Of a stretch of DNA of 16,625 nucleotides, positions 388 to 16,625 are shown one piece after another (the stretch's first letter is position 1; every line of letters begins with the position of its first letter). The notes beneath the pieces are model-generated. The model was not told the origin of the DNA and ran no database searches. It saw only the letters and a program-made list of their open reading frames with translations. The DNA lies in the UHGV virus genome UHGV-1607792; one strand, 5' to 3'. The DNA is from a virus. A program made the translations under genes and the position numbers.

Positions 388-2316
388 TTATCGAACATGC
401 CAAAGAGTGTTCGACTTCACATTGACAGAGCTCTTAAAGTTATTATGACTGCACAACCAAACATGTGACTTATCAAGTTCTGCATAGGCATCTGACTTTA
501 AGAATGCTTCAGAAGATTTGCTTGTCTGTTGCTTTGTCATTGATGCATCACCTACAAGCATCGCAGTTGAGCCTTTGTACACTTGTTGTGCATCATCTGC
601 AATCAACGTAGCTTCAAATGGCTGTTGCTGCATAAGCAATGCAAGTGTAGACCGACATGAATCTTTGTCTACTCTTATATGTGTAATTTTGCCGGCAAAA
701 CCATACAGCTGAACAATGTCTGAGTCATTTGACCAGTCATGCAAAATTGATGTAGACTTAACAACTTCTGTCAAAATTTGCATGTCATTAACTACAGTAG
801 ATGTCGACAAACTCAGTACAAGTTCAACGTCACCATTGTCAAGATTGCGTAGTCTAATGACTACACCGTTCCAGCTCTTGCAAATCTTATCATCTACGCT
901 TGCTAAGCTTTCGCCAGTTTTGACATCAAGCACATGCAACAAGCCAGATGACACTACAAGCATCAATCTGCCAAGTCGCATCAGTTGCCATGATGCTGCT
1001 TGAGCTTTTGCGTTGTCTTCAAGCATAAACAAGCAACATGCAGACCAATCTGACACATCAAGCGATTTAACATACTCAACTGCGATGTTATTGCCAACTG
1101 CGTTCATGTCATAGAACGCAGCAGACACTGGCACATATTTGAACGACAGCGGTGATTCATTTACACTGACTGCTTTATGAATGAATCTGCGATTAGTCTC
1201 ATACATGCTCAAGTCGACATGCATGTCATTAACAAACATATTGAGAGCAATGTCTTCGACTTGTTCAGTTGCAACTTTGTCTGCATCAAAAGCATCGAAT
1301 GTTTGTGTGAGCTCGTCCAAATTAAGTATCTCTTTCACATCATCAGCAACTTGCATCTTAGACTCGTCACGATATTCAGGTCGATGCTCATATGACTTCA
1401 ATGTTAGCTCATAATATGGCGTTGATAACATAATGCCATCTGGATGCTGCACAGATGCGACTTCAAGCATTCGATTTGCTATTGGCACGTAGCAATAGTC
1501 AAATTGCTGCGGCTGCTTGCCAATGCCAAATACTCGTTCATATTCTGCTTTTGGCACATGAGCTGTTATGCCTTGTTCAAAATCAATGTCAAATGCGTCA
1601 TATGTGACTTTGTTCGTGCTAAATTCATTGTCAACGACCATCAACTTCAGCCACTTAACTGCGCCAGTATGAATCAAATCATATGCACGCAATGATGCAA
1701 CACGATGTTCATCTGACACTTCATGACTAAACCAGATAACAACATGACCAAGCTGACGATTCACAGCATTTACAATGTTGTCTTGCAATGCTATAGCATC
1801 TTGCATGTGCGTGTATGGATTGTACAGATGATTGTCTGATTCAATGACAATTGATGCTTGTTTTGCTGGTGCAAAAATCTCGTCAGCATATGTGACATTG
1901 TCAACAGACTCTTCATTGACTTTGATGTCTTCAAGCACATATGAGTCATGACGAACATTTGCTGCATCTGTCCATTGCTTGCGCCATGCAATATCAACAA
2001 TCATAATGAACTTGACATGCACTGGTTCGTCCGCAGTTGCATATGCAAGTACAAACTCATTCAAATGCGTTGCAGCATCATACACAGACCCAGGCTCAGA
2101 CCACGTCTTGCCTACATCTACAGACCATTTGAACTGCACATTGAGCATTGCATGACATTGCTCAGCATTGTCGACAAGCTCAATGTTATTCAACGAGCCT
2201 TTGATATCTGCAGCAAATTCAAGATACAGCGTAGAATCTTGTCTTACGATAATGCAATCGTTATCAGCCCTTTGTGACACTGACCGCTTTGTTGATTCGT
2301 TTGATGACTTTGCCAT
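388..2316 (-). CDS. hypothetical protein, 642 aa, acidic; no recognisable motif
   Basis: Long ORF with ATG start (2314-2316) and TAA stop (388-390); same strand and composition as neighbours. Its start overlaps the end of the upstream 516-aa gene by 53 nt in another frame. Confidence 0.8.
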   Translation of the reverse strand: MAKSSNESTKRSVSQRADNDCIIVRQDSTLYLEFAADIKGSLNNIELVDNAEQCHAMLNVQFKWSVDVGKTWSEPGSVYDAATHLNEFVLAYATADEPVHVKFIMIVDIAWRKQWTDAANVRHDSYVLEDIKVNEESVDNVTYADEIFAPAKQASIVIESDNHLYNPYTHMQDAIALQDNIVNAVNRQLGHVVIWFSHEVSDEHRVASLRAYDLIHTGAVKWLKLMVVDNEFSTNKVTYDAFDIDFEQGITAHVPKAEYERVFGIGKQPQQFDYCYVPIANRMLEVASVQHPDGIMLSTPYYELTLKSYEHRPEYRDESKMQVADDVKEILNLDELTQTFDAFDADKVATEQVEDIALNMFVNDMHVDLSMYETNRRFIHKAVSVNESPLSFKYVPVSAAFYDMNAVGNNIAVEYVKSLDVSDWSACCLFMLEDNAKAQAASWQLMRLGRLMLVVSSGLLHVLDVKTGESLASVDDKICKSWNGVVIRLRNLDNGDVELVLSLSTSTVVNDMQILTEVVKSTSILHDWSNDSDIVQLYGFAGKITHIRVDKDSCRSTLALLMQQQPFEATLIADDAQQVYKGSTAMLVGDASMTKQQTSKSSEAFLKSDAYAELDKSHVWLCSHNNFKSSVNVKSNTLWHVR

Positions 2317-3814
2317 TGCGAGGATTTATGATTGCAAGTTCAATATCATAGTCGCCGATATGACGAAAATGATGTCTAAAAAGATATTTGTCAGATGTAG
2401 CTTCAATGACTCCACCAGATATTGCATTGCGATATGTGCATGTCCATTTGATGTCATGTGGAGCATAAGCATATGACAGCTCATCTGGGAAGCAGCACAC
2501 TTGACTACCAACTGTCACAGTTGCGCCATTGTCAATCTTGCAAAACCTTGTATCATTTGGTCTACGTTGCACTGCATAGTGATGCTGACATTCAAACATG
2601 TCTGATTTGATTGACAGAGTTTGCCAAGGTGATTCAATTAGATATCGAGGCTTTTGAGACTCTTCACTTACAAGTTTACAATGCAACCCAAGATTTTCAA
2701 GCTCTTCAACAAGTTGAGTGTTTGCAATGTGTAGGGTGTAGTGTTTGTCATTTGTGTGTATTTCCACATCATGCTCAGTAACATCAACGACATCTGCAAT
2801 GATTGTCGCAGGCCAATTGCCAGTCAGCTCAAAGTCATCAAATGAGAAATGCAAATCTGTTTTGACATGCAATTGTGCTCTGCTCATAGGCTCTTTGCTG
2901 TACGCATACAATGCCCATTGCATTGAATTGTCAAGCATCTGAATTTCTTGCACAGACCATGTAAACTTCACAAATTGTGAATCTGCTTGCAATTCACAGT
3001 AGTCATTGATTTGTTTGAGCAAGTCTTTAACATCTGTGTATGCAATGTTGACTTCATCTGCGTCAACTTGAACGCCATCAACATCGACAAACTCAGACAT
3101 CGACATTGCAAATGTGCCAGCACCTTCAATATCAATTTGCATGTTCAGATATGTTGAGCCGTACTGCAACAATCGCATGCAATCAGAATCAATAAGTTTG
3201 ATGTCATTCAAATGGTCAAGCCATAGAACATTTGATTGCGCCTTGTCAAGATTGTAGAGCCATTTTATGATTGAGTCGTCTTTTTTGACATTTTCTGGGT
3301 CAAACACATTTGGGTCTGGGTAACTCATGAAATCTGGCACGCCCAATGCTTTTCGTGTGCTATAGTACAATGTAGCATTGTTCATGCCTGCAATATCAAT
3401 TGACTCATCAAGCTCTTGAAGCTTTGCAGCAATTTGAGACAATGAATTGCCAGCATATGACTGCTCAAGTGAATGTAGTTTGCAGTCTGCAATAGCAATG
3501 ACGAAGTTTGCTTGCAATTCTACGATGTTCAGTGTGCGTTTGAACACTTGCACTTGACCATAGCAATCTTTAATAGTCAACACAAGTTCATATGCACCTG
3601 CAGTTGTTATGCCAAGCTTAAGATGCTGTTGAACATCAAGATACGTTCTGTCAAACACAAGCTTGCCAGATTCATCATAGATTTCATATGTAGCTTCTCT
3701 ACAATTTTGTATGAGCGCAGATAAGTCTGTGTCTTTTGATGACCATGCTGCAATTGAAATGTCTATAATTGCTACATTGTCTCTATAAAAAAGCCCTATA
3801 GGTTGTGGATTCAT
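2264..3814 (-). CDS. hypothetical protein, 516 aa; possible beta-sandwich segments at both ends (weak)
   Basis: ATG at 3812-3814, TGA at 2264-2266; begins 11 nt after the stop of the 149-aa gene. Confidence 0.8.
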   Translation of the reverse strand: MNPQPIGLFYRDNVAIIDISIAAWSSKDTDLSALIQNCREATYEIYDESGKLVFDRTYLDVQQHLKLGITTAGAYELVLTIKDCYGQVQVFKRTLNIVELQANFVIAIADCKLHSLEQSYAGNSLSQIAAKLQELDESIDIAGMNNATLYYSTRKALGVPDFMSYPDPNVFDPENVKKDDSIIKWLYNLDKAQSNVLWLDHLNDIKLIDSDCMRLLQYGSTYLNMQIDIEGAGTFAMSMSEFVDVDGVQVDADEVNIAYTDVKDLLKQINDYCELQADSQFVKFTWSVQEIQMLDNSMQWALYAYSKEPMSRAQLHVKTDLHFSFDDFELTGNWPATIIADVVDVTEHDVEIHTNDKHYTLHIANTQLVEELENLGLHCKLVSEESQKPRYLIESPWQTLSIKSDMFECQHHYAVQRRPNDTRFCKIDNGATVTVGSQVCCFPDELSYAYAPHDIKWTCTYRNAISGGVIEATSDKYLFRHHFRHIGDYDIELAIINPRNGKVIKRINKAVSVTKG

Positions 3815-3825
3815 TGTATTGCAGT

Positions 3826-4275
3826 CTATTGATGATTGTTGTTATCACACCTATTGAGCAACTGGTCATAATACGTTTGCTCTGTCTTACGCTGCTGTTC
3901 TATCAAAATGATGATTTGTTCCATCTGAATTTCAAACGCGGCGTTTTTGCGAACAAGTGCCTTATGTTGCTCAGCAGTCAATGATGCGTCAAGAATGTCC
4001 AACATATCTGCATGATATGCAGCAATAATTTTGTTGTATTGCTGCATAGCAGTTTGCAAAGACTCAAATGATTGGTCAGATAATGTTGACAAAATCTGAA
4101 CATGCATTTTGTCTGTCAAGCCAATTTTTGCTTGCAGCAAATCACGTTCTGCTGAATGCTTTCTGTCAATGTTGATGATAAACATCATCAAAATCATCAA
4201 TACAAAAGCTATGACAGTCTTATAGTTCTTGTCATCAATGAATCGCAGCAAAAATATGTCTAAAAACTTTTCCAT
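3826..4275 (-). CDS. small membrane-anchored coiled-coil protein (N-terminal TM helix, then charged helical region), 149 aa
   Basis: ATG at 4273-4275, TAG at 3826-3828. Hydrophobic stretch TVIAFVLMILMMFIINI near the N-terminus, followed by a Q/E/K/L-rich heptad-like sequence. Architecture resembles type II membrane proteins such as i-spanins; function not established. Confidence 0.7.
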   Translation of the reverse strand: MEKFLDIFLLRFIDDKNYKTVIAFVLMILMMFIINIDRKHSAERDLLQAKIGLTDKMHVQILSTLSDQSFESLQTAMQQYNKIIAAYHADMLDILDASLTAEQHKALVRKNAAFEIQMEQIIILIEQQRKTEQTYYDQLLNRCDNNNHQ

Positions 4276-4292
4276 TGCTTATTCTGCATTGT

Positions 4293-5618
4293 TCATTCTG
4301 CGATTTCCCAGATTCGTGTTCGTTTGTTTGCTATGCTTCGTACTACCGCACTGTCACCTATGCGAACATCCCATGCTCGATTTGATGTCAATGTGATGTT
4401 CTTTGTACCACCAGGCTGTTCAAATGACAAGTTTGCTTTGTCAAGTTCAAGCAGTGGAGCCAAGTCCATGCTTTGGTCAATAAGCCAATCAAAGTACTCA
4501 GCGTCAATTTGTGTCGTGTCAATGTCTGCTTCAGTTACTACAAAAATGTCATTGAGTTTATTTGGTCTAACAGTGTCACCAATTGGCTCAAATGCAGTGC
4601 TTGACAGAAGCATTGTATGTGGACGAATGTAAATGATGTCTTCATCTACAAATGCATTCATATCTTTGACGACAATTTGTGCTGCAGGAGTGTATGGCTT
4701 TGACGTCACAATTTCTGCATTGTCTGAGCCATACAAATACCGAGCCATGTAGGATGCAAAAACATCAATGCTGACATCTGCAAAATGAATGTGCTCTGGC
4801 AAAAAGACATCTTCAAGAATCATGACAAGATACTGCAGCTTCAGCAACAAATCTTGATTGTCTGCCATGTTCTTGACAAATTCAGGCATGCCACAGTTCA
4901 GATATTTGCCAGATGCTTCATTGTATTCATAAGTCAGTTGCAGCAAATTTGTGCGCTTATACATGCCTGCGTATGGCGAAATGTCATCTTGCAATGGCAA
5001 CAATGTTCTGTTGTTGCCATCAAGTGATTTGAGCACTTCATAGATGCGAACAGCTTCACTGTAGCCAAGCCAGTCTAATGCAGCATGCAACCCATTGTAT
5101 GTACCAAGCTTGCTGTCAATGTCATCTCGTCGTATAAGCCACTCTCTTGCTTTGCTATTCTGCAATATGAAGTCAACGACATCTTGTCGAATGTCATTCA
5201 GCATCAATGCTTTGTTGTAGTACTCAAGATAGTCATGACCCATATTAGACATCATGACAAGCAAACGTTCATCCGCATCAACTACTGTAGCAGTCACATT
5301 GATATGCAATGCAATGCCATCAACGACAACTTCAATTGCACAAACGTTATTGCCAACATCGACAGCATTGAATATGATATTTGCAATCATATCATCGTTG
5401 ACAAGATGTCGAGTAGTCTTATCTACAAGCAGCAATTCATTATTATCGTCAACCGCAAAGAAACTCAATGCAGACGATAGCAATCTGACTGTGCATTCAA
5501 CATTGTCTGCAAACAATGATGCAATGTTGTATGTGCCCTTTGACACATTGCCAAGCTCTATGTTAGCGCCATCATAGATGCGCTTGCCGAATCTGTCAAA
5601 AATGTTTATTGCAGCCAT
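4293..5618 (-). CDS. hypothetical protein, 441 aa
   Basis: ORF track extends to 5642 from a TTG; the first ATG is 8 codons in (MAAINIFDRF...), giving end 5618. It sits 1 nt after the TAA of the upstream small ORF (TAA-C-ATG). TGA stop at 4293-4295. Confidence 0.8.
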   Translation of the reverse strand: MAAINIFDRFGKRIYDGANIELGNVSKGTYNIASLFADNVECTVRLLSSALSFFAVDDNNELLLVDKTTRHLVNDDMIANIIFNAVDVGNNVCAIEVVVDGIALHINVTATVVDADERLLVMMSNMGHDYLEYYNKALMLNDIRQDVVDFILQNSKAREWLIRRDDIDSKLGTYNGLHAALDWLGYSEAVRIYEVLKSLDGNNRTLLPLQDDISPYAGMYKRTNLLQLTYEYNEASGKYLNCGMPEFVKNMADNQDLLLKLQYLVMILEDVFLPEHIHFADVSIDVFASYMARYLYGSDNAEIVTSKPYTPAAQIVVKDMNAFVDEDIIYIRPHTMLLSSTAFEPIGDTVRPNKLNDIFVVTEADIDTTQIDAEYFDWLIDQSMDLAPLLELDKANLSFEQPGGTKNITLTSNRAWDVRIGDSAVVRSIANKRTRIWEIAE

Positions 5619-5619
5619 G

Positions 5620-5850
5620 TTACAGTTTCTTATCAATGTCAAAGTATGACGTAAAGCGATTCACAAATTCAACAAACAAAATCGACAATGCATCACACAT
5701 GCCAATGAGAGTTGACACGCCAAAATACGCTGCAACTCTTGTGCTCTTATTGAACACTACTCTACTATATACGCCACTCTGCCATGATGGCTTTGCAGTG
5801 ACAAGCATTGATTGCTTGATTTTGTCTCTTGTTGTGAAATTTGATTGCAT
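5620..5850 (-). CDS. small hydrophobic protein, 76 aa (one predicted TM-like segment, charged C-terminus)
   Basis: ATG at 5848-5850, 9 nt after a tandem TGA-TGA at the end of the 577-aa frame; its TAA stop lies 1 nt before the next ATG. Tight coupling on both sides supports it being real. Hydrophobic core VAAYFGVSTLIGMCDALSILFVEFV. Confidence 0.55.
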   Translation of the reverse strand: MQSNFTTRDKIKQSMLVTAKPSWQSGVYSRVVFNKSTRVAAYFGVSTLIGMCDALSILFVEFVNRFTSYFDIDKKL

Positions 5851-5862
5851 ATTTGTGAATCA

Positions 5863-7473
5863 TCAACATTCTACGTACGAGCCATCAGTGTTTTCAACAA
5901 GCACTTTGATGCTCAAGCCTACATCTGTGCCAGCTTGGCTTCTGATAAGTGGCACAATGTCTTTTGATTGTGGCGCAATGTTGCCCATATTATCAATGTG
6001 CTCGTCATTGCCAATGAACTGCACATCTACTGATTTGATGACATCAAGCTCTTCAAGTTTTGCGATTGCAGCAGAACGACTAACGAATGTCGATGCATTT
6101 GACCATGAGTCTTCTACAAATGCTTTTGCAGCATCAAGCAATTGCTGCTTGACGTCTTCTATGTTTTGCAGTACTGCAGTCTTTTTGACAAGAATGAGCA
6201 TTTGATAAAATTCAAGCTGCACAGTGTCAAATTGCACATCAGTTAGCAACACATAGTCACCAGTGTTTTCGATAGCATTGTTCAGATATTGTCTATCTGT
6301 AGAGTCGATAGTGAATTCTGCTATTGGCAATGACCAGTAGTCATACACTATTGAGCCTGCTTTGACATACTTGTCTGCAATGTTGGGCACCAACACGACA
6401 TGAATTGTTTGAGTCTCTGTATTTGACCAGACATCAAGTATCTTGTACTGACCAAAGCGTGACATGAATGCTCTGATTGAATCTGCTGAGTGCAACACAA
6501 GTGCCCTGTTAATTGAGCCTGCATGTGAACGTATAGATTCGATGTCTTCACCATTGTAACCACCTACAATGTCTGTCAACTGTTCAATGACTAATACACC
6601 CTTTGGACTTACTGCAGTAGTGTTTGCATCATACATGCCATTGACCCATTCAAATGTTGCATCATTGTCAATCAAAATGTTTCCTGCATAGCCCTCACAT
6701 GCAGTGTATTCTACATTGACGACTGCATTTTGTGCAGGAATTTGACCAGCAGTACCATTGCCAAACACAATCTGTAGTTTGCCATCATATGACCAGCGTT
6801 CAATGTACCCCTTGCTGTATCGGTCCATTTCATCAAACCCTGCATAGCGAGTCCACAGCTCATTGCCAACTGTGACAGTCAATGAATCTTCAGATACAAT
6901 CAAGTTGCGTTCTTCGATAGTGAATGTTGTCATTGACTCACCATCAGAAATATATTGCTGAGACTTGCGTTCACCTTGTCTAACTGCGAATTCATATCGT
7001 ACACCAGTCAACTCATTGTTGATGTTGAGTTGCGCAAAGTCTTGATGCATATCGATGTAGTACATCAGCGAGTTCTCTTTGCATTTAATTGCTGCGTATC
7101 GTTTAATGAACACAGTTGGACCAAGCTCTTTGACTGCGTCATATGAAAAACTCAATGCAATTTTGCCCGATGCTGCAATGCCACCAACACATTTGTAACA
7201 TGCAAGCTGTGCAAGTCCTCGTACAGATGCGGTCTGTTCTGCAGTAAGCAAGTTGTTTTCTTTTGTGCCTACTACAATTTGCGTAAAGATGAGTGACGCA
7301 AGTTCTCTGAAACTCTGAACAAGAATTCCAAAAATTGTGTACTTACCATATTGTTTCTTTGTAGAGTTCAGCAAATTCTGCAGCCAAGTATCTATAGACT
7401 GTGACACACCTGAATATGACATCTGCATTTTCTGCATCCATGTCATATTGTCACGAGTGTTATTTGTGCGCAT
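5863..7473 (-). CDS. hypothetical protein, 536 aa
   Basis: ORF track starts at a TTG (7596) and translates the tandem repeats and terminator palindrome; the first ATG is 41 codons in (MRTNNTRDNMTWMQ...), at 7471-7473. A-rich leader without SD. Stop TGA at 5863-5865. Confidence 0.8.
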   Translation of the reverse strand: MRTNNTRDNMTWMQKMQMSYSGVSQSIDTWLQNLLNSTKKQYGKYTIFGILVQSFRELASLIFTQIVVGTKENNLLTAEQTASVRGLAQLACYKCVGGIAASGKIALSFSYDAVKELGPTVFIKRYAAIKCKENSLMYYIDMHQDFAQLNINNELTGVRYEFAVRQGERKSQQYISDGESMTTFTIEERNLIVSEDSLTVTVGNELWTRYAGFDEMDRYSKGYIERWSYDGKLQIVFGNGTAGQIPAQNAVVNVEYTACEGYAGNILIDNDATFEWVNGMYDANTTAVSPKGVLVIEQLTDIVGGYNGEDIESIRSHAGSINRALVLHSADSIRAFMSRFGQYKILDVWSNTETQTIHVVLVPNIADKYVKAGSIVYDYWSLPIAEFTIDSTDRQYLNNAIENTGDYVLLTDVQFDTVQLEFYQMLILVKKTAVLQNIEDVKQQLLDAAKAFVEDSWSNASTFVSRSAAIAKLEELDVIKSVDVQFIGNDEHIDNMGNIAPQSKDIVPLIRSQAGTDVGLSIKVLVENTDGSYVEC

Positions 7474-7498
7474 ATCAGTTAATTTGTTTGTATATGTA

Positions 7499-7572
7499 TT
7501 CGAATGTGCACACATGAGAATAGGTCTCTTCGAATGTGCACATATGAGAATAGTCTCTTCGAATATGCGCAC
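7499..7572. repeat. 2.5 tandem copies of a 30-bp direct repeat; each unit stacks three palindromic cores (TTCGAA, TGTGCACA, CATATG)
   Basis: Unit 1 at 7499-7528: ttcgaatgtgcacacatgagaataggtctc. Unit 2 at 7529-7557: ttcgaatgtgcacatatgagaatagtctc. Partial unit at 7558-7572: ttcgaatatgcgcac. Lies between a terminator and the ATG of the 536-aa gene. Confidence 0.8.
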
Positions 7573-7603
7573 AAAAAGAAGAGCTTGCATATGCAAGCTC
7601 TTC
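7573..7603 (-). terminator. intrinsic (Rho-independent) terminator candidate
   Basis: Perfect 26-bp palindrome gaagagcttgcat|atgcaagctcttc (7578-7603), giving an 11-bp stem and ATAT loop, followed on the minus-strand transcript by UUUUUGUG. About 43 nt downstream of the 127-aa gene stop. Confidence 0.7.
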
Positions 7604-7645
7604 CATCGCCAAAACCTATCTAATTATGGAAACACCTCTGAAAGG

Positions 7646-8029
7646 TCAAATTATGAATCGTTTTGTGATTGGCCTGAAGTCTTCTGGCAAATCATAACGT
7701 TTTGTGATTGTTACATCGCAAACAAGCAAATCGTTCATTTGTGTAGCAGATTTTGTAATGAAACAGTTGACAGACCATTCAAACAAATGCTGCGTAACGC
7801 TATAGTTTTTGAGTGCTGTAATGATATGTGATTGAATTGTTGCTGTCGAAATGCTTCTGTGATAAAGCGCAGCATCAATCTTCTCGACATCAAACATAAT
7901 GTCAATTTCATTCAAAAAGACGCGCAATGAATCAGTTGTTTGCAATTCATCATCTTCTTGAGTTTCTACAAAGTCAATGCCTTGCAGCTCTTGTGACATT
8001 TGTGATGTATCGAAACGATTATCTGACAT
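7646..8029 (-). CDS. hypothetical protein, 127 aa
   Basis: ATG at 8027-8029, 6 nt after the TAG of the 436-aa gene; TGA at 7646-7648; followed on the minus strand by a hairpin plus U-tract terminator. Confidence 0.7.
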   Translation of the reverse strand: MSDNRFDTSQMSQELQGIDFVETQEDDELQTTDSLRVFLNEIDIMFDVEKIDAALYHRSISTATIQSHIITALKNYSVTQHLFEWSVNCFITKSATQMNDLLVCDVTITKRYDLPEDFRPITKRFII

Positions 8030-8035
8030 GATATG

Positions 8036-9346
8036 CTATGCTGTTTGTTGAACATTGACAGTCACAAGCACCTGTTTACCAGGCTCCTGCGATTTCATTT
8101 GACGTGACACTTCAATGAATGCATCAAGCAATTGCGCAGGTGAAACAGTCATGCCTTGCTCCATAAGCTGCTTACGCAATGCTGCGATTTGCTGACTTGC
8201 ATTTTGGTCATTGCCAATTGACAACATTAGTGAATCAAGTCGACGTCCAAGTTCTGCAACTTTAAGTTGAATTGACTGCAATTGTGATGCTGAATCTGCA
8301 AGTTGACTGATAGCTTGCATGTACAAATCAAGCGACACGCCATCAATATTCGATACTTCAATGGGCGCAAGTCCAACATTGCATGAGCTTACTCTAGTGC
8401 AAATGCGAAATGCGATTGCATTTGCAGAGCCATCATCAGACACTGCTTTCTTAACAAAGCGTTGCATGCTGTAACCTCTGCCACCCGATTCTTCATATCG
8501 ATTGACAAAGAACAATGAATGCAAGCATCGTGTTTTGACAGTTGGATTTGACTGCAGCCAAACATCACAATACAATGCAATGCAATTGAATTCAATGTCT
8601 TCATTGAATGCTTCATAATCTGAGAACTGTAGCTTCAATCTATCAACTGCACGGCTCAAACTGTATCGACTTGCAGGTTCTACAACATCTGCATTGTCAT
8701 AGATAGCTTTTGTGAATGTTGTGTCGCCATCTTCAAGACCCTGAGCGTTTTCTTGGAATGTTTCTGGCACATAGCCAACTTCAATGCCTGGATATGTTGC
8801 AGCAGACCATTTTGCATTGCATCGCTTCGCGTTTGCAGGTATGTACAAATACTGCTCAGTGTATGGCATACCATTAAGCTCAACTACGCCAAAATCAATT
8901 GCATTGCCAATATATGTGACAAGTGGTTGCCAATCTGAACGTTGTACAAATGCTGCACCATCTGCAGTAGACTCAAGTTCAAGAGCAGAAGCCTTTTGAA
9001 ACATCTTCCACAACGCAGATTCTGTGAATGTTTCATTGGCAGACTCCAGCAATGACGTTGCAAGCAATGAGCAGTTGTCGAGGTAGTTTTGACACAATGC
9101 TGGCACAAGAGCGTTGGCGTCTTCAACCATCGTAGTGTCATTGAACTCTGATGGATGCACAAAGAACTTTTGCCCATTGTGCTCAGCGTCATTGTACCAA
9201 TCTGGAATGTTCAAACAAGCAAACACAGATGGTGACACGACAATGTCGTGATTTAATGTCGCATTTGTCAGTAGCGTATTTGTGTCAGTGAACACAAGTA
9301 CAGTGCCTTGTGTTAACTTTAACGGGTCGAAAACGGAAACTCTCAT
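8036..9346 (-). CDS. hypothetical protein, 436 aa, C-terminal coiled-coil-like region
   Basis: ATG at 9344-9346, 2 nt after the TAA of the 144-aa gene; TAG at 8036-8038. Confidence 0.8.
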   Translation of the reverse strand: MRVSVFDPLKLTQGTVLVFTDTNTLLTNATLNHDIVVSPSVFACLNIPDWYNDAEHNGQKFFVHPSEFNDTTMVEDANALVPALCQNYLDNCSLLATSLLESANETFTESALWKMFQKASALELESTADGAAFVQRSDWQPLVTYIGNAIDFGVVELNGMPYTEQYLYIPANAKRCNAKWSAATYPGIEVGYVPETFQENAQGLEDGDTTFTKAIYDNADVVEPASRYSLSRAVDRLKLQFSDYEAFNEDIEFNCIALYCDVWLQSNPTVKTRCLHSLFFVNRYEESGGRGYSMQRFVKKAVSDDGSANAIAFRICTRVSSCNVGLAPIEVSNIDGVSLDLYMQAISQLADSASQLQSIQLKVAELGRRLDSLMLSIGNDQNASQQIAALRKQLMEQGMTVSPAQLLDAFIEVSRQMKSQEPGKQVLVTVNVQQTA

Positions 9347-9348
9347 TG

Positions 9349-9783
9349 TTATAAAATTGTCAATCGATGCTCTGCATCAGTTTGCTCACTGTTAAATGTC
9401 ACTGTCACTGAGTGCTCAGTGTCATTGAAACTTGCAATGCATTCATGCTCAATGCCTGCAATTCGCAAATGCACATCAGCAAAAGTCTTGTCAATTGTTG
9501 ATTTGATGACATACACATATTGCGGTGCTTGTGCTTCAAGTCGAGTAACAGTCACATACTGATTGTCTACTTGCTCTTCACTATTTACAAGCTCAGTCAA
9601 TGTTGGCTTTACTACACTGACATGTGCAAACTGCAATGCTTTAAGTACTGCTTTGCTTCTTGAATCTACTTGTTGCTGATTTGACACCAGCAGTTTGATT
9701 GCAGAGTATGGTGTCTCTACATTAGCATCAATAGTATTGAGTGCAATAGGCTTTACAGTAGCCAAAAATTCTGCAAGTGTCAT
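9349..9783 (-). CDS. hypothetical protein, 144 aa
   Basis: ATG at 9781-9783, 1 nt after the TAA of the 176-aa frame; TAA at 9349-9351. Confidence 0.7.
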   Translation of the reverse strand: MTLAEFLATVKPIALNTIDANVETPYSAIKLLVSNQQQVDSRSKAVLKALQFAHVSVVKPTLTELVNSEEQVDNQYVTVTRLEAQAPQYVYVIKSTIDKTFADVHLRIAGIEHECIASFNDTEHSVTVTFNSEQTDAEHRLTIL

Positions 9784-9784
9784 A

Positions 9785-10285
9785 TTATGAAAGCTGAGCC
9801 GTAGTGTACCAAGTTAAGTCAGATTCATTGTACGTCAATGCAATTGTAAGAGCTTGACCAAGTTGCTGTGACAATTGCTTACATGAATCAATGAATGCTT
9901 GCATATCTGCATATGACTTTGTGTAGAACATGCACCATTCTGTTGTATTGACTGCGACATTATGAACATCTGCAAGATGACAGACTTCTACAGATGATAC
10001 ATTAAAGTCTGAGCCATCTTCATCAACATGATGCACATTGTTTGCGCACCAATACTGATACAAACGAGCTTTGTCTGATGCAGTCATGTCAAACTGCATG
10101 CGTTGAGCAATTGATTCATCGACATTATCAATGAATTGCTTTGCTGACTTTGATTCAAGCATCGCATGATGCAGTGTATGATTTGCATGCCAGTCTGGAG
10201 TGCCGATTGCTACGCTAAGCTGATTTTCAAACACAAATTGTTGTGCTTGAGCTTCTTCGTAGCATTGTGTCCATGTCTTTGTCAT
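9785..10285 (-). CDS. hypothetical protein, 166 aa
   Basis: ORF track starts at a TTG (10315); the first ATG is 10 codons in (MTKTWTQCYEE...), at 10283-10285. First gene after the terminator that follows the sigma gene. Confidence 0.7.
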   Translation of the reverse strand: MTKTWTQCYEEAQAQQFVFENQLSVAIGTPDWHANHTLHHAMLESKSAKQFIDNVDESIAQRMQFDMTASDKARLYQYWCANNVHHVDEDGSDFNVSSVEVCHLADVHNVAVNTTEWCMFYTKSYADMQAFIDSCKQLSQQLGQALTIALTYNESDLTWYTTAQLS

Positions 10286-10342
10286 GTTGTTTATCTTAAG
10301 TTTGTATATGTACAAATAATGTTGATGTTGTATTGAAGCATC

Positions 10343-10384
10343 GCAAAATAAGGCCAGACTACTCGGTTGAGCTTGTCTGGCCTT
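10343..10384 (-). terminator. intrinsic terminator candidate after the sigma factor gene
   Basis: 10-bp GC-rich stem aaggccagac (10350-10359) / gtctggcctt (10375-10384), 15-nt loop, followed on the minus strand by AUUUUG. Begins 19 nt after the sigma TAG. Confidence 0.55.
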
Positions 10385-10402
10385 TCAAATGTATCTTGCT
10401 TG

Positions 10403-11299
10403 CTACAGTGTTCCGCAAAGTAATTCACGTAAATCCATGCCAGCTTGTGTGCTGTATTGAGCAATCATGTTGCGTTCAGCTTCAGACATGCTCCAATAGA
10501 TTTTGTGAAAACTGCGTTTGATAATTGTATGAATGCCAGATGTGCTACAGTTGAGCTTCTTTGCAAGTTCTGCATGAGTTAGCAAATCAGCATCGCCAAG
10601 GCCATATACATGCGTAAGTACGAGCTTTTCATTTTGTGTGAGCTGTTCAAATGCTCTTTGCAGAATCTTTGTGTTGCGTTTGTGAGCATCCTCGATTTCA
10701 AGAACTTCTTGACCTGTTTTGAAGTCTGACCTCAAATCATTCTGAACTGGCGACCATGTATCGCCATCTTTGTCAAGTGTAGTGTCATCTTTGCTGGTGA
10801 ATTGTTTGACTTCAAGAACTCTTTCATATGCTCCACGAATACCAGTAGATAATTGTTGACTTGTCAGATTGAGTTCGTCAAGCACATATTTCTTAATCCA
10901 AGGATATGCATATGTGCTAAACTTTGCTTCACGAACTCCTGCAGGCAATACGCCTTCTACGTAATTCTTGGCTGCTATTGACAATCCAAGATTGCCTGCT
11001 TGAATGACATCATCCAATGGAACCGAGCGTTTGCCAGATGCGAACCATAAGCTTCGTGCAACTGATATGACCAATCTTAAACAAGATTTGATAAGAGCTT
11101 CACGATTTTCTTGAGTCTTCTTGAATCGAGTAACATCACAATATCGCTTTGCAGTAGCCAGCGATTTGACTTCTTCAGGAGTAAGCTCATTCTCCATCCT
11201 CATTTGCTTGAGCTCTTCCTTTGTGTATAGACGTTCTCTTGTGATTCTACCTACGTCCTTTACGTAGCCTTGATTGATTTGTGAATTTGAACCTGCCAT
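10403..11299 (-). CDS. sigma-70 family RNA polymerase sigma factor, 298 aa
   Basis: Region 2 signature: LRLVISVARSL...LDDVIQAGNLGLSIAAKNY...KFSTYAYPWIKKYVLDEL, compared from memory with the E. coli RpoD segments LRLVISIAKKY / LIQEGNIGLMKAV / KFSTYATWWIRQAI. Region 4 helix-turn-helix: LTHAELAKKLNCSTSGIHTIIKRSFHKI. ATG at 11297-11299, TAG at 10403-10405. Flanked upstream by a 133-bp AT-rich gap and downstream by a GC-rich hairpin terminator. Confidence 0.85.
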   Translation of the reverse strand: MAGSNSQINQGYVKDVGRITRERLYTKEELKQMRMENELTPEEVKSLATAKRYCDVTRFKKTQENREALIKSCLRLVISVARSLWFASGKRSVPLDDVIQAGNLGLSIAAKNYVEGVLPAGVREAKFSTYAYPWIKKYVLDELNLTSQQLSTGIRGAYERVLEVKQFTSKDDTTLDKDGDTWSPVQNDLRSDFKTGQEVLEIEDAHKRNTKILQRAFEQLTQNEKLVLTHVYGLGDADLLTHAELAKKLNCSTSGIHTIIKRSFHKIYWSMSEAERNMIAQYSTQAGMDLRELLCGTL

Positions 11300-11432
11300 G
11301 GTTGTGTAACTTATTTAGTTTTAATTTGTTATATAAATTTAATCATTTTTTGTCACATATGAAAATGTTTTGCACATTATTTTCACATAAAGTGTAAAAA
11401 AGTTATGAACATTTTGTTAACACATGTAGACA
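11300..11432 (-). promoter_or_regulatory. AT-rich intergenic region upstream of the sigma gene; candidate promoter and repeated TTTTG(T)CACAT elements
   Basis: 133 bp with no ORF. On the minus strand: GTGACA (plus 11351-11356), 17 nt, TATAAC (plus 11328-11333), about 25 nt upstream of the ATG, resembling a sigma-70 -35/-10 pair (5/6 and 5/6). Three spaced copies of ttttg(t)cacat(a/t) on the plus strand. The promoter assignment is inference only. Confidence 0.4.
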
Positions 11433-13016
11433 TCAAACCATTTCATTCAACTTGTCGACATTCTTTTTAGCGTCTGCACTTTGTACAAATGCATAGACAT
11501 TATCATAGACTTTGCTAATTGCTGCATCTGTGTAATCATAGAAGCTGTGTCGAGTTCTTGAAGTTCTGCCACCTTTGATGCCAAGTGATGCTTTGTCAGA
11601 ATCTGATGGTTTCCAATATGTTCGCCCAAACCCCGTAGATAGAATCATACTTTCCACGCCAGACCTATCTCGTGGCATAGCATGTTTCAAATGGCAAGTT
11701 ACAATGAAGTCAGTTGGAAAGTCATCATAGCCAAGCTCACTTGATGCAGGTTGAATGTCAGTCTTCGTTAAGATAAGATTGCCAATGCTTGCTATGGGTC
11801 GAAGTGGGTTTCCTAATAGCAAATGCCATTCTCCGATGGCGTCGCCCTTTAGCAAGCTATTCATAACAGGAATTGCTGGTCGACCAATAGTGTTCAAGAA
11901 TTTCGCAACAGCAAAACGTTGAAATGCAAGTTTAGCAATCTGCTGCAATTTTTGTTTTGCTGCTTCTTTTCCACCTCCGCTTGCATTCATAATGTTTTGA
12001 GCAATGCCTTTGAAGAAGTCTGTGATTGAGTTGAATGAACCATCAAGCGCATCTTGAATGATTGTAGATTCAAGTTCAAGTGCTTTGTTCCAGAACACTG
12101 ATGGCTGTCCGCCAACCCAGTAGCGACCACCTCCCCAAAAACGCGCGTCATTGTATGTGCATTGCATCACATTGCTCAACAAGTCAAGCATTGCTGTTTT
12201 GGGATTGATTCCATCAATCGACTTCAATGAATAAAAGAATTTGACAGTCAATTCATGCTCAAAGTTCAAGCCGACATCACGAATATGCGTTTGTGTAATT
12301 GAATCAATTGGGCCATAGACTTTATTGTGGTCATGTGTAGGGTCTATTGACAGTCGTGCTTTGCCACGCATTTGGTCTTTTGCATACACTGGGTCCATCA
12401 ATTTTGCCACTCGGCCCATCCAGCCACTAATGCCATAATTGCCTCCACTGTCACCACGCATTTCGCCTTGCTCCAATGCAGCAGACAATTCTTTCCAACG
12501 CATGCCAAAACTGAAGCTCAACAAATCTTCAAGTTTGTTGTTTTCACCATCAAACCACGTAATCATATGAGCGATTTCAGGTGTTTGCTGAACTGTTGTG
12601 TTGAAGATGTCATCTTGACATGGCTCAGCAAATCTGCGCAATGTTATGAGTCTGTTGTTTGGGATTTGACCAAGAAATCTGCAATATGCAAAGTCTTGCC
12701 AATCGTATGTTGATGCGCCAATGGGGTTGTTAATGATATTTGCTGCAGTAGGCGTCAAGTATTGCAGGCCTTGCAAGTCTTGGTCAAAGTACACAGTTTT
12801 GCCATCAGGCAATTGCGGTGCTGCAAATAGATTCCATGCATTGAACAAAGACTGCACACCTTGTTTTGACGCATCTTCTGCGCCACGAGGCATATCAGCA
12901 TTGAGTTTCTTTTCATAAAACCCATGCTCATAGTCTGTCTCTTGTGCAAATGCACCAGTCAGTGTGCTACTATCTGCATTGAGCTTATTGTCTTTTGGCG
13001 GAGCTATTGTAGCCAT
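11433..13016 (-). CDS. hypothetical protein, 527 aa (Gly/Trp-containing; function unknown)
   Basis: ORF track starts at a TTG (13046); the first ATG is 10 codons in (MATIAPPKDNKL...), at 13014-13016. TGA at 11433-11435. Confidence 0.8.
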   Translation of the reverse strand: MATIAPPKDNKLNADSSTLTGAFAQETDYEHGFYEKKLNADMPRGAEDASKQGVQSLFNAWNLFAAPQLPDGKTVYFDQDLQGLQYLTPTAANIINNPIGASTYDWQDFAYCRFLGQIPNNRLITLRRFAEPCQDDIFNTTVQQTPEIAHMITWFDGENNKLEDLLSFSFGMRWKELSAALEQGEMRGDSGGNYGISGWMGRVAKLMDPVYAKDQMRGKARLSIDPTHDHNKVYGPIDSITQTHIRDVGLNFEHELTVKFFYSLKSIDGINPKTAMLDLLSNVMQCTYNDARFWGGGRYWVGGQPSVFWNKALELESTIIQDALDGSFNSITDFFKGIAQNIMNASGGGKEAAKQKLQQIAKLAFQRFAVAKFLNTIGRPAIPVMNSLLKGDAIGEWHLLLGNPLRPIASIGNLILTKTDIQPASSELGYDDFPTDFIVTCHLKHAMPRDRSGVESMILSTGFGRTYWKPSDSDKASLGIKGGRTSRTRHSFYDYTDAAISKVYDNVYAFVQSADAKKNVDKLNEMV

Positions 13017-13042
13017 ATCTTCAAATGTATTTAGGATATGTA

Positions 13043-13081
13043 CCAAACAAACAAAAAGCTTGACTTATTCAGTCAAGCTTT
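13043..13081 (-). terminator. terminator-like hairpin overlapping the stop codon of the 163-aa gene
   Basis: 11-bp perfect stem aaagcttgact (13055-13065) / agtcaagcttt (13071-13081) with 5-nt loop, followed on the minus strand by UUGUUUGUUUGG. The TAA of the 163-aa gene is at the stem/loop junction. Confidence 0.5.
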
Positions 13082-13556
13082 GTTCAGAAAGTTCAATAAT
13101 TTGTGTTTCGTATAGTCGTCTTAGTTCATCAAATCTTACACAGTTTTTGTCATACAGTGTAGCAAGACCTTGCAATGCTTGTTGTTTGCTTGTCCATACA
13201 ATGTCAGCAGTCAAATCCCATAACCACTTTTGTGCATAATAGAACTTCCAGTCATGCCAAAATGTTTGCGTAGTGATTTGTTGTTCTTTATCATCAATGT
13301 AGACAAAGTGATGCGTTGGATTGCCACTTTCAAGGTCTACAAATCTGAATGTTTTGTTTGCTACATGCTTAGCAATCCATTCGTCAGATGCAATGACTTC
13401 TTGCAATGCACATTGATAATAGTAACGCTTTGCAATGTCAAAGTGACGAACAACTACGCCACGAAACAATGTCCATAGCCATGGCTCTTCTTCTGAACTT
13501 CTAATCCAATAAACTTCTTGATTTACTGGTAGAAAATCGTAGTGAACGAGGTCCAT
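13065..13556 (-). CDS. hypothetical protein, 163 aa, Trp-rich
   Basis: ATG at 13554-13556, 3 nt after the TAA of the upstream gene; its own TAA (13065-13067) sits inside the loop of a terminator-like hairpin. Confidence 0.7.
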   Translation of the reverse strand: MDLVHYDFLPVNQEVYWIRSSEEEPWLWTLFRGVVVRHFDIAKRYYYQCALQEVIASDEWIAKHVANKTFRFVDLESGNPTHHFVYIDDKEQQITTQTFWHDWKFYYAQKWLWDLTADIVWTSKQQALQGLATLYDKNCVRFDELRRLYETQIIELSEQSLTE

Positions 13557-13559
13557 TGC

Positions 13560-14138
13560 TTACAGATGCACATTGACACTTGTCACAAGGTCGCAATCAA
13601 TCAATGCTTTGAGCGTGTCAATTTCATTGTAGCCAAATGCGCGTGTAGCAGCAAGCACATGATTGACATCTACTGCAGCAGTAATGTCGACTACAACAGT
13701 CTTGTCATCTTCAAGTGGCTGCAAACGCTTGATGAGTTGATGCAGCATATCGTCTGCAGGTGCGCTTAGCTGCTGTACTGGATATGCCGGTATATGCTGC
13801 ACTGGTTCAATTGGTGATGTTATTGGCGATGTAGTTGCTGGTGACACTGGTGCAATTGGTACTACATGCTGTACTGGTGCGATGACTTCAGATACAACAC
13901 TGCCATCTGCAGCAGTCGTAGATACACTTGGAATCGCAATTGGCTGAGAGAACACGTCGTCTTGAGGGCGATTCCATGTTTCAATTTCAGACAATGCATA
14001 AAGACGATTTTGACTGTCCCATGCCTTATCAGCTTCTTCGTCAATTGCAACAATTGTTCGAATTTCTGCCGTTGCTGGCCTATCGCCGTTTTCGAGCTGT
14101 TCAATGACTCTGATAGGCGCTATTGATGTTCGTGCCAT
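13560..14138 (-). CDS. hypothetical protein, 192 aa, with Pro/Val-rich low-complexity linker
   Basis: ORF track starts at a TTG (14195) inside a palindromic intergenic region; the first ATG is 19 codons in (MARTSIAPIRV...), placed at 14136-14138 by codon arithmetic from the track. Linker PVQHVVPIAPVSPATTSPITSPIEPVQHIPAYPVQQ. TAA at 13560-13562. Confidence 0.7.
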   Translation of the reverse strand: MARTSIAPIRVIEQLENGDRPATAEIRTIVAIDEEADKAWDSQNRLYALSEIETWNRPQDDVFSQPIAIPSVSTTAADGSVVSEVIAPVQHVVPIAPVSPATTSPITSPIEPVQHIPAYPVQQLSAPADDMLHQLIKRLQPLEDDKTVVVDITAAVDVNHVLAATRAFGYNEIDTLKALIDCDLVTSVNVHL

Positions 14139-14310: not shown

Positions 14311-16625
14311 TTATCGTATGATGAATGGTTTGTTGGTATCTTCAATAATCATTGAGCCGATGCCATGTAACTCTTGAGTAACCTCGACAGATACGTCTTG
14401 TGCAGTGTTGTACGAGCACTTGAATGCTGCAACTCGACTAAATGCGTCAATGTCTGAGTAACTGAGTTCATCGACTTGCATTGAGATTTCACCAATTGCT
14501 GGCGTAGTCTTTGATGGTGTCATTGTGATGTCATGCAGCCAGCCCGGATTGCCAACTATGACTGCTGTCAATGATTCGCCATCAATTGGGTTGATGATTT
14601 CATAGTTGAAGCTTAAAGTCTTTGCAGTATCATCAGTTGTTGCCGATGCAGGTGTAATGTTGATTGTTGTTACGCCCTTAGCAGCTTGAACAACTTGTGC
14701 TGTGACATCTTGAGCATTGATGTGAGAGAACTTAACTGAACAACTGCGTTGTTCTGTCGTCAAGTTGCGGTCACATTCAATAGTCAAGTAGCCCCTGCCA
14801 GTATTATCGTCATATTCGAAGTTTGTATCGGTAAATGTGCCATCATTGTCAAGCACTGCATATGACAACTGCTGGCCTGCAATTGGGTTGCCAACAGTAA
14901 TTTCGAACTGTACTTGAGTATCTGTCGACTTCAATTGAGCATTCATTGGTTCGACAGTTATCGTTGACATGCCTTGAGCTGCTTGTGTGATGCTGACCGT
15001 TACATTGTCAGCAGTCATGTATGACAGTCTCAAGTATAAGTTACGAGTAGCTGTTGCAGTGTTGATGTCAAGCGCAAATTGTATTGTGCCGGCTGACATA
15101 TTAACTACAGGTTCGCCAACAAAGCCAGAGCCCTCTGTCGTAACTGTCAGTGTTTCACCTTCAATAGGGTTGATGATGCTAAAGTTAACTGTGAACGAAC
15201 CGCCATTAGCTGCTGCGTTGATTGTCAATGGTTCGGCATTGATGACTGTAGCTTCTTTAGCAGCTTGAGTAAGCAAGACTGCTACATTGTCAGCAGTTGG
15301 ATATTGCAGTACAATATTTGCTGTACGAGCAGTTGTTTGCAATGTCTTGTCATAATCAAATGTAATCTTGTCATCAGCAACTTGAACGTTGTGAATCCAG
15401 CTTTCTGTTGCATATGCAGTGACTGCTGCACCAGCAAAGCCATTACGAATTTGATATGCAATTTCAGCTGAACCACCTGCTGCATTGAGTGACATAGAGC
15501 TTGTAACAATGATTTCTGGCCTTGTTGAAACACCTGTACTGTATTGAACTACAGATGCAATTACACGAGGCTCAAATATGACAGCATTTGCAGAGCCGCC
15601 AAATGTAGGTGTTGCAATCACATAGATTGGCCAAACTCCACTTGATGCGACATTACGTAAGATTGCTTGATAATGCAGTTCATTGCATGCATCTTGCAAT
15701 TCACTCCACGTTTTTGTAGTGTCAATTGATGTCAAGCATGCTGGCAATACTGCGCATGTTGATGGCTTATCCGCATCAATGGGCATTGCATTGCCACCTG
15801 CTATTGGCTTGTAGCTCAAGTCAACTTTGACTGATGCATAGCCATTGCCATACACAATGAATGGTATAGTGATATCGAACAAAATATCGACTGTTGCAGG
15901 CATGTTCAGATATGCAGGCAGCGGTATGAGTGTTTGCATTGCTGTCGTGCCTGGTACGTGGTCATCGAATGATTCAACATACACAGGTGGTGTCAAGTCA
16001 TCTTTATGCGCATATTCTGCGTGAGTGTGGTCTGAATGCGACACTGTGCTTGCATAACCAGAACCACCAAAGTTCTTATTAAATGCAGAGCCCTTTGCTT
16101 CTTCAGTTAATCTGCCAGAGCCATCATATGACAATACTGTATTTGATGCACCGACACCTGCTGCAAGATGATTTGAGCCATCAATGAAGACATGTTTGTA
16201 TTGACGTTCAAACAAATGAGCATCAAAATTGTCAAATATCGAATTGAACAACTTTTTGACTGCAGATGCTGTAGGCAGATGTTTGTTTGCATTTGCGCCA
16301 TCGATAATGATGCTTGACCAATTGTCTGAGCTCTTGAAGATGCTAAGAAGCATATCAACAACTTTGCCAGTAGCATCTGTGCCAAGAACACTTGCACCAG
16401 GCAATTTCATCAATTGTAAGTCGACTGTTGCAGCAAGTTTAAGCAGCTGTTTTGTCAATGTCAGAATGTCTGTGACAGCACCAGCATCTGACAATGCAGC
16501 AATGCGATATGACTGATTGATGAGTTGCGCAAACTTATACGCACGAATGAATGACTCTCGCTTTGCTTCTGCATCCAAGCCTTTTGCCAAGAACAACTCA
16601 TCATATTTCAGATTTGCATATGACA
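14311..16625 (-). CDS. large repeat protein with four tandem BACON-like/Ig-like domains at the C-terminus; 5' end lies beyond window end
   Basis: The frame is open to the last base of the window; the track's start at 16596 is a TTG and upstream codons continue in frame. TAA at 14311-14313. Four homologous 50-100 aa repeats, each ending (T/N)A(D/Q)(D/N)V(T/S/A)V.(V/I/L)TQ(A/E)(A/L).G, with internal NPI(E/A/D)G and R-T/S-A motifs. Confidence 0.8.
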   Translation of the reverse strand, partial: SYANLKYDELFLAKGLDAEAKRESFIRAYKFAQLINQSYRIAALSDAGAVTDILTLTKQLLKLAATVDLQLMKLPGASVLGTDATGKVVDMLLSIFKSSDNWSSIIIDGANANKHLPTASAVKKLFNSIFDNFDAHLFERQYKHVFIDGSNHLAAGVGASNTVLSYDGSGRLTEEAKGSAFNKNFGGSGYASTVSHSDHTHAEYAHKDDLTPPVYVESFDDHVPGTTAMQTLIPLPAYLNMPATVDILFDITIPFIVYGNGYASVKVDLSYKPIAGGNAMPIDADKPSTCAVLPACLTSIDTTKTWSELQDACNELHYQAILRNVASSGVWPIYVIATPTFGGSANAVIFEPRVIASVVQYSTGVSTRPEIIVTSSMSLNAAGGSAEIAYQIRNGFAGAAVTAYATESWIHNVQVADDKITFDYDKTLQTTARTANIVLQYPTADNVAVLLTQAAKEATVINAEPLTINAAANGGSFTVNFSIINPIEGETLTVTTEGSGFVGEPVVNMSAGTIQFALDINTATATRNLYLRLSYMTADNVTVSITQAAQGMSTITVEPMNAQLKSTDTQVQFEITVGNPIAGQQLSYAVLDNDGTFTDTNFEYDDNTGRGYLTIECDRNLTTEQRSCSVKFSHINAQDVTAQVVQAAKGVTTINITPASATTDDTAKTLSFNYEIINPIDGESLTAVIVGNPGWLHDITMTPSKTTPAIGEISMQVDELSYSDIDAFSRVAAFKCSYNTAQDVSVEVTQELHGIGSMIIEDTNKPFIIR
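14362..15405 (-). repeat. tandem array of four protein-level repeats (BACON-like beta-sandwich modules) inside the 761-aa CDS
   Basis: Approximate residues 398-745 of the track protein. Repeat ends: ...NVAVLLTQAAKE / ...NVTVSITQAAQG / ...DVTAQVVQAAKG / ...DVSVEVTQELHG. Repeat starts: ATVINAEP / MSTITVEP / VTTINITP. Diverged at nucleotide level. Confidence 0.6.

Follow-up and report, generated by a model that had tools for sequence, protein, structure and literature searches.

What does a run of genes with no motif apparent to the eye encode when it fills most of a 16,625-nucleotide stretch (here called the window) of the virus genome UHGV-1607792? The whole window is an unbroken array of minus-strand genes, and window coordinates below refer to that strand. 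Between positions 388 and 14138, it holds, besides a gene for a sigma-70 family factor, 13 tightly packed open reading frames (ORFs) that encode proteins of 642, 516, 149, 441, 76, 537, 127, 436, 144, 166, 527, 163, and 192 amino acids (aa), in order of increasing coordinates. An earlier note had described them as thirteen consecutive, co-directional proteins, acidic and D/N/V/T rich, without recognizable function, and had thought of virion proteins, possibly in a tail- or baseplate-like order. Our analysis indicates that the region is very probably the late structural module (baseplate, tube starter, and neck) of a large T4-related contractile-tailed phage.

All 13 proteins have orthologues, at 26 to 56% amino acid identity and in unchanged order, in the metagenomic contigs L010, L012, and L015. 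Since order is kept in three diverged contigs, the ORFs are real genes and not chance reading frames. Number, sizes, and coordinates were as described, and all 13 do lie on the minus strand, but the sigma factor gene (10403 to 11299), which is not one of the 13, splits the run into 3 plus 10. Acidity holds for 12 proteins (isoelectric point [pI], 4.45 to 5.97) but not for the 76-aa protein, which is basic (pI 9.7), and the compositional claim is right in part: D (7.8%) and V (7.7%) are frequent, along with S (7.1%), but L (8.7%) and A (8.2%) outrank them, and T and N reach 6.1% and 5.5%. In transcription order, the module begins with a fiber-like BACON protein, followed by the 192-aa and 163-aa proteins, the putative tube initiator (527 aa), the sigma factor, and the 166-, 144-, and 436-aa proteins. 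It continues with the gp25-like and gp6-like proteins, the 76-aa protein, the N-terminal half of a protein at the gp7 position, the 149-aa protein, the C-terminal half, the gp14-like neck protein, and a 1,442-aa repeat fiber.

A first assignment concerns the 537-aa protein (5863 to 7476). The absence of a recognizable function was true by eye only, as a plain PHROG scan matched this protein to PHROG 219 (baseplate wedge subunit) at 2.6e-22 and gave in addition a weak neck protein match for the 642-aa protein; profile and structure methods added several more. T4 gp6 was reached from the 537-aa protein by local jackhmmer, and the alignment of its family to T4 gp6 with hhalign was nearly full length (100%; E, 7e-71; residues 17 to 514 against 22 to 576). 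Homologues in the phages pT24, PTm1, and MaF61 carry the label “baseplate wedge.” We therefore regard the 537-aa protein, on profile similarity, as a T4 gp6 homologue and a predicted baseplate wedge component. The 127-aa gene lies directly upstream of it, and the 441-aa gene lies downstream, past the 76-aa ORF.

The 127-aa protein (7646 to 8029) is a putative gp25-type (GPW-like) sheath initiator, again as judged from profiles. A first round of hhalign with shallow families (-M first) found gp6 only, without a gp25 signal for the 127-aa family; the gp25 and gp14 signals emerged after the families had been deepened with 34 related IMG/VR loci and 406 HMMER homologues. The deepened 127-aa family (24 sequences) had T4 gp25 as its top match among 28 T4 proteins (hhalign, 78.6%; E, 1.7e-5). 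A profile search of the PDB returned gp25-type proteins in 9 of 10 matches (E, 0.002 to 0.26), among them Pvc9 (0.0037), Afp9 (0.0087), a “GPW/gp25 family protein” (0.013), and T4 gp25 itself (0.05), as well as proteins of the AlgoCIS and Anabaena contractile injection systems. The Pfam model PF04965 (GPW/gp25) matched neither the window protein nor eight relatives, while the T4 gp25 control was matched. “Baseplate wedge” PHROG matches obtained with the gp25-like set were discarded, having been traced to the T4 gp25 control; no relative had a gp25 PHROG.

At the other end of the module, the 642-aa protein (388 to 2316) appears to carry a T4 gp14-type neck (head closure) domain at about residues 160 to 370, with N- and C-terminal extensions. 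Taken alone, it matched PHROG 679 (head closure Hc2) at 5.7e-5 and the Pfam T4_neck-protein model (PF11649) at 0.0066, with 16.3 bits against a cutoff of 25. Among 44 homologues, of 406 known, 12 matched PF11649 (best, 9.2e-7). The counterpart identified in a cultured phage is MA9V1_033. With the family profile, T4 gp14 chains were found in the PDB at 1.4e-4, and hhalign gave T4 gp14 at 93% (E, 3.4e-7), while gp13, gp15, gp3, and gp4 stayed below 1%.

The 527-aa protein (11433 to 13016) was placed by its predicted structure, which has a tail tube (Hcp-like) fold with a helical insertion at about residues 272 to 377 and matches the structure of a T4-type tail tube cap. Searches of the PDB with the single sequence and with the profile gave no meaningful match. 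On the model, the protein would be the baseplate tube initiator or tail tube cap, a functional analogue of T4 gp48/gp54, in a class that includes eCIS Afp7-type proteins and P1 PmgG as well. In the phage PAU, its homologue is the unannotated gp269. A CHAP peptidase domain (PF05257) is present in a family member of 762 aa (P0096), which suggests that in some relatives this baseplate protein bears a cell wall hydrolase.

Related phages encode, after the gp6-like gene, a single large putative wedge protein. A protein of 900 to 1,400 aa follows the gp6-like gene and a small ORF in PAU (gp21), PTm1 (ORF-177), pT24 (246), MA9V-1 (032), and many metagenomic relatives. The 441-aa protein (4293 to 5618) matched PHROG 28177 at 9.3e-24, and the family of its close relatives aligned to the 900- to 1,000-aa proteins of PAU, PTm1, pT24, MA9V-1, and L014 over template columns 97 to 295 (hhalign, 99.3%). 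The 516-aa family (2264 to 3814) aligned to the same large proteins over 421 columns, corresponding to template columns 450 to 880 of 916 (97.8%; E, 8.8e-13), and BLASTP gave 29% identity over 96 aa between the 516-aa protein and the 895-aa protein of L014. Because the two proteins match the N- and C-terminal parts of the single protein of the relatives, the wedge gene is split in the window and in L010, L012, and L015. Between the halves (2264 to 5618) sits the gene for a 149-aa protein (3826 to 4275), which has a hydrophobic N-terminal helix (maximum Kyte-Doolittle 19-mer, 2.22, at residues 18 to 36) and a coiled-coil-like remainder. It matched no Pfam or PHROG family, and orthologues (26 to 30% identity) were found in L010, L012, and L015 only.

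The small ORF apart, the next gene after the gp6-like one is, in the window as in every relative examined, that of the large wedge protein. Tail_P2_I was the Pfam family most often seen among its members (4 of 16), PKD-type matches occurred in some of the large relatives, and a PDB profile search with the 441-aa/large family gave no meaningful match. From position plus this faint similarity, we infer that the 441- and 516-aa proteins together may represent the wedge protein found at the T4 gp7, P2 gpI, or TssG position. The suggestion of virion proteins in a tail- or baseplate-like order is thus borne out by a gp6-like wedge protein, a gp25-like sheath initiator, a tube-fold initiator or cap, a gp14-like neck protein, and a split protein at the gp7/gpI position. 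In the Pfam and PHROG scans, none of the 13 proteins showed the homology to housekeeping or metabolic families that had been named as a sign of a chromosomal locus.

Several observations weigh against this interpretation. With single sequences, none of the 13 proteins reached the curated cutoff of any Pfam model. Thirteen residues are deleted at the gp25 motif loop in the 127-aa protein and its nearest relatives; the motif of this loop is G-x-R-x-x-x-P-x-F-G in T4 gp25, is kept as G-N-x-D-F-G in the PTm1 and pT24 homologues, and has the common form G-x-x-(D/P)-F-G in T4 gp25, PTm1, and pT24. The tube initiator call comes from one predicted structure, one third of which is disordered, and when the 55-sequence family was compared with T4 proteins by hhalign, all values were below 4%, and gp48 and gp54 were not among the top ones. 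For the gp7/gpI assignment, the sequence evidence stays below significance: the large wedge family gave T4 gp7 at below 1% (hhalign), the Tail_P2_I matches were all below threshold (best, 0.0045), and the best of 12 P2 tail proteins, gpI, had an E value of 0.042. The predicted structure of the 436-aa protein is of low confidence (predicted local distance difference test [pLDDT], 57), with no convincing structural neighbor, and the evidence for six small proteins (76, 144, 149, 163, 166, and 192 aa) is synteny. Lastly, the published data on virion proteins of MA9V-1 are limited to sodium dodecyl sulfate-polyacrylamide gel electrophoresis.

The relatives of the window point to its source. Megablast with the entire window found no match among phage genomes, and two IMG/VR viral contigs of 174,628 and 175,564 bp are near-identical to it, a contig of about 175 kb being IMGVR_UViG_3300045988_149023. 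As assembled, both fall short of the 200 kb used to define jumbo phages, and related contigs measure 153 to 163 kb. The 537-aa and 527-aa proteins each retrieved 31 phage records, with identical tallies of organisms and hosts, and nothing else in the phage collection. These records include Chryseobacterium phages MA9V-1 and MA9V-2, Sphingomonas phage PAU, Tenacibaculum phages pT24, PTm1, and PTm5, Flavobacterium phage MaF61, 15 Prevotella Lak megaphages, and 6 uncultured huge phages (LR7565xx). Phages of the PAU/PTm1/pT24/MA9V-1/Lak type have been described as the T4-related “group 2.2,” with a gp23-type capsid and sigma factors (Iyer et al. 2021, PMC7824862). The related phages also encode terminase, tail sheath, major capsid, and portal proteins, and the order fiber, tube initiator, gp25, gp6, gp7-like, gp14-like is kept in PAU, PTm1, pT24, MA9V-1, and metagenomic contigs. 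In the deposited genomes, nearly all of the homologues are labeled “hypothetical protein.” The source is very probably a T4-related contractile-tailed phage of about 175 kb, belonging to the PAU/PTm1/pT24/MA9V-1/Lak lineage. Known hosts of the related phages are mostly Bacteroidota, and the fiber-like genes flanking the module contain BACON-type repeats; the phage itself probably infects a member of this phylum. The notion of a poorly sampled lineage fits cultured phages but not metagenomes, in which more than 825 clusters were found for the 527-aa family and 406 representatives for the 642-aa family.

Parts of this evidence could be read in other ways. As the best PDB matches of the gp25-like family are Pvc9 and Afp9, of extracellular contractile injection systems (eCIS), and the tube initiator model has matches among eCIS LysM tube initiators too, the locus might be a phage-derived contractile injection system or tailocin (eCIS or type VI secretion system [T6SS] like) carried by a bacterium, rather than part of a virion-forming phage. 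We consider this extremely unlikely, given that near-identical sequence lies on two viral contigs of 174.6 and 175.6 kb, that every detectable relative is a phage, the cultured ones with capsid, portal, and terminase genes, that the 642-aa protein carries a gp14-type neck domain, of the kind that joins head to tail, and that the gp6-like protein aligns to T4 gp6 over nearly its whole length. On a different reading, the 527-aa and sigma-like proteins would sit inside the capsid at its vertices, as the “mango” subunits of PAU are annotated to do, and would not be tail parts. Unexplained inner structures have been reported beneath the capsid vertices of PAU (Hua et al. 2017, PMC5646251), and PAU gp1, a homologue of the sigma factor, is annotated as “mango” subunit 2, subunit 1 being gp10 (543 aa). 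The 527-aa protein, however, showed no similarity to gp10 (BLASTP E, 0.55 to 0.57), its PAU homologue is gp269 and not gp10, and its predicted fold is that of a tail tube, which makes this reading very unlikely as well.

Less easily set aside, although still rather doubtful in our judgment, is the view that the small acidic proteins (76 to 192 aa), and possibly the 436-aa protein, are nonstructural and serve in host interaction, antidefense, or as assembly chaperones encoded in late operons. They match no structural family, most are limited to close relatives, and chaperones are common in phage late operons, as in T4 (gp51, gp57A, and gp38). On the other hand, the 163-aa protein and the small ORF after gp6 hold their positions beside structural genes across deeply diverged relatives, which fits a physical or assembly partnership, and the 436-aa family includes members with fiber-like C-terminal extensions.

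The 163-aa protein (13065 to 13556) is the constant upstream partner of the tube initiator gene. It matched PHROG 28303, of unknown function, at 3.5e-8, and its homologues adjoin the 527-aa homologue on the upstream side in PAU (gp268), PTm1 (ORF-010), MA9V-1 (018), L010, L012, L014, and L015. A PDB profile search with the family found no match. Its constant place suggests that it may be baseplate or tube associated. One gene further upstream, the 192-aa protein (13560 to 14138), which is acidic with a Pro/Val-rich middle, has orthologues of 34 to 36% identity at the same place, two genes upstream of the tube initiator, in L010, L012, and L015. It had no Pfam or PHROG match, and its C terminus bears a weak likeness to the protein encoded at this position in PTm1, ORF-009 (hhalign, 19%).

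The 76-aa protein (5620 to 5850), with a hydrophobic segment, has orthologues of 41 to 46% identity in L010, L012, and L015, aligned over its full length to a 77-aa ORF after the gp6-like gene of L014 (hhalign, 82.6%; E, 9.7e-6), and has counterparts by position in PAU, PTm1, and MA9V-1, where ORFs of 63 to 83 aa follow the gp6-like gene. The acidic 166-aa protein (9785 to 10285) is a homologue of PAU gp11 (local jackhmmer, 3.1e-26) without Pfam or PHROG assignment. For the 144-aa protein (9349 to 9783), orthologues (33 to 39% identity) were found only in L010, L012, and L015, with no further match by Pfam, PHROG, or hhalign.

The 436-aa protein (8036 to 9346) is found throughout the clade and combines an alpha/beta N-terminal part with a C-terminal coiled coil. 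Neither single-sequence nor profile searches of the PDB gave a meaningful match. We infer that it would be attached to the baseplate, where it may anchor a fiber, and it is probably trimeric. The C termini of its homologues vary: one (L049, 216 to 2642, minus strand) has collagen triple-helix repeats (1.3e-15), and those of MA9V-1 (L005, 13981 to 16965) and L014 (12901 to 15855) have extensions of about 550 aa. In L019, L020, L022, L044, and L049, the gene shifts its place within the baseplate neighborhood.

Taken as a virion assembly module, the region has parts to which tentative roles can be given. The 527-aa tube-fold protein, seated on the baseplate hub, would start polymerization of the tail tube, and the 127-aa gp25-type protein would start the sheath. 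The 537-aa gp6-type protein would be a component of the wedge, and the 441- and 516-aa proteins may replace a single gp7/gpI-type protein whose gene was split by the inserted 149-aa gene; a protein of this type would pair with two copies of gp6 in each of the six wedges. The gp14-type neck domain of the 642-aa protein would join the filled head to the tail. The 436-aa protein could form a baseplate-attached oligomer with a short coiled-coil stalk, lengthened in relatives to collagen or long fiber-like regions. For the six small proteins, the simplest reading may be that they are minor components of the baseplate or chaperones of its assembly, and the embedded sigma factor probably steers the host RNA polymerase to phage promoters.

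The sigma protein was identified by Pfam (Sigma70_r2, 4.9e-8; Sigma70_r4, 1.8e-6) and PHROG 351 (4.7e-25). Its gene adjoins the tube initiator gene on the downstream side in L010, L012, L014, L015, and a JGI contig; in MA9V-1, it comes four genes downstream. The homology to PAU gp1 (L006, 94 to 1182) covers residues 61 to 267 at 32% identity (phmmer, 3.4e-19), and gp1, which is labeled “internal capsid vertex protein (mango) subunit 2” in GenBank, has weak matches of its own to Sigma70_r2 (1e-4) and Sigma70_r4 (4e-3). Label and matches together would mean that a sigma-like protein is packaged under the capsid vertices or else that gp1 is misannotated. A bolder proposal is that the lineage has baseplate parts of new fold (the 436-aa family and the 163-aa partner of the tube initiator, both without a match to any solved structure) and, if the label of gp1 is right, a sigma-like protein packaged in the virion. 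We hold this to be unlikely; if true, the packaged protein would be delivered with the DNA and could reprogram the host RNA polymerase at once.

Three terminator-like hairpins with T runs punctuate the array. One, with an 11-bp stem (13055 to 13081), precedes the tube initiator gene and is followed by the motif ACATATCC, 25 nt upstream of the start codon; another lies upstream of the 166-aa gene (approximately 10351 to 10383), and the third, with a 12-bp stem (7577 to 7604), lies between the gp25-like and gp6-like genes. The 170-nt gap between these two genes also holds a 30-nt tandem repeat (7499 to 7573; 2.6 copies, 89% matches), which is located between the hairpin and the gp6-like start and whose last partial copy runs into ACATATAC, 21 nt upstream of the start codon. 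A listed TTG start at 7596 would cross this repeat, and the ATG at 7476 is the likelier start of the gp6-like gene. On the minus strand, ACATATCC starts at 13041 and ACATATAC at 10311 and 7497. Of the four ACATAT[AC]C sites on the minus strand, three each follow a hairpin and precede the start codon of a gene (that of the 527-, 166-, or 537-aa protein) by 21 to 26 nt; in L010, L012, and L015, the corresponding genes are preceded by TACATAT-type motifs at a distance of 28 to 35 nt. Over the window and its relatives, the motif has the form (T/A)(G/A)TACATAT and stands 21 to 35 nt before the start codon. It is a candidate phage promoter that, placed after the hairpins, may divide the module into at least three transcription units. 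A scan of the window for sigma-70-type promoters gave no clear enrichment (61 sites versus 46 ± 7 expected), and a tRNA scan found none.

On either side, the module is flanked by fiber-like genes. The upstream one (14311 to 16596) encodes a 761-aa protein with an H-S-D-H-T-H motif in its N-terminal part, followed by BACON-type repeats (Pfam BACON, 5.8e-5). At this flank, relatives encode a short tail fiber (MA9V-1 ORF16, by annotation) or a Head_fiber_dimeric protein (L010, 1,644 aa). Identity of the 527-aa and 761-aa proteins with the PAU “mango/banana” proteins was considered and rejected by BLASTP. Downstream, the window holds the first 110 residues (1 to 332) of a Ser/Thr-rich repeat protein of 1,442 aa (L004, 17130 to 21458).

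The use of these results lies mainly in annotation. A block of “hypothetical proteins” becomes a usable set of a tube initiator and of gp25-, gp6-, gp7-position, and gp14-like proteins, and the annotation extends to unannotated homologues in PAU, PTm1, pT24, MA9V-1, and the Lak megaphages, that is, to a widespread Bacteroidota-associated lineage. The 436- and 163-aa families are marked as targets for structural work. The understanding of contractile tails is unchanged, as the locus is an ordinary virion assembly module in a group with few cultured members.

In order to put the module into perspective, it can be set beside three known systems. With T4, it shares near-full-length homology to gp6, gp25-like and gp14-like domains detected by profile, and a tube-fold protein that matches the tail tube cap, and the order of its gp6, gp7-position, and gp14-like genes is that of T4 genes 6, 7 ... 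13, 14. However, the window has no detectable homologues of gp7, gp53, gp8 to gp12, or gp13; its gp7-position protein is encoded by two genes, and a sigma-70 family gene lies inside the module. The 527-aa tube initiator, with its helical insertion, has no sequence link to gp48/gp54, and the gp14-like protein is much longer than that of T4 (642 versus 256 aa).

The second comparison is with the phages PAU, PTm1, PTm5, pT24, MA9V-1, MA9V-2, MaF61, Lak, and LR7565xx, with which the window has the 527-, 537-, 436-, 441-, 163-, and 127-aa families and the sigma factor in common, in largely the same order. Identities to the PAU/PTm1/MA9V-1/Lak group are nevertheless only 21 to 46%, and the window differs from it in the size of its source contigs (about 175 kb), in its split wedge gene, and in the BACON-type repeats of its flanking fiber genes. 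Its 436-aa protein lacks the long C-terminal extension seen in MA9V-1 and L014. Finally, the order gp25-like, gp6-like, gpI-like is that of the minimal conserved contractile wedge, as in the V-W-J-I cassette of P2 and the eCIS/T6SS wedge (Pvc9/Afp9/TssE, TssF, and TssG). In P2, gpW stands directly before gpJ, just as the gp25-like gene stands before the gp6-like gene in the window. When the three families were compared with 12 P2 tail proteins, the best match was each time the positional equivalent, W, J, or I (E, 0.035, 6.6e-4, and 0.042, respectively), although similarity to the P2 proteins is weak, and the window proteins are far larger and have extra domains.

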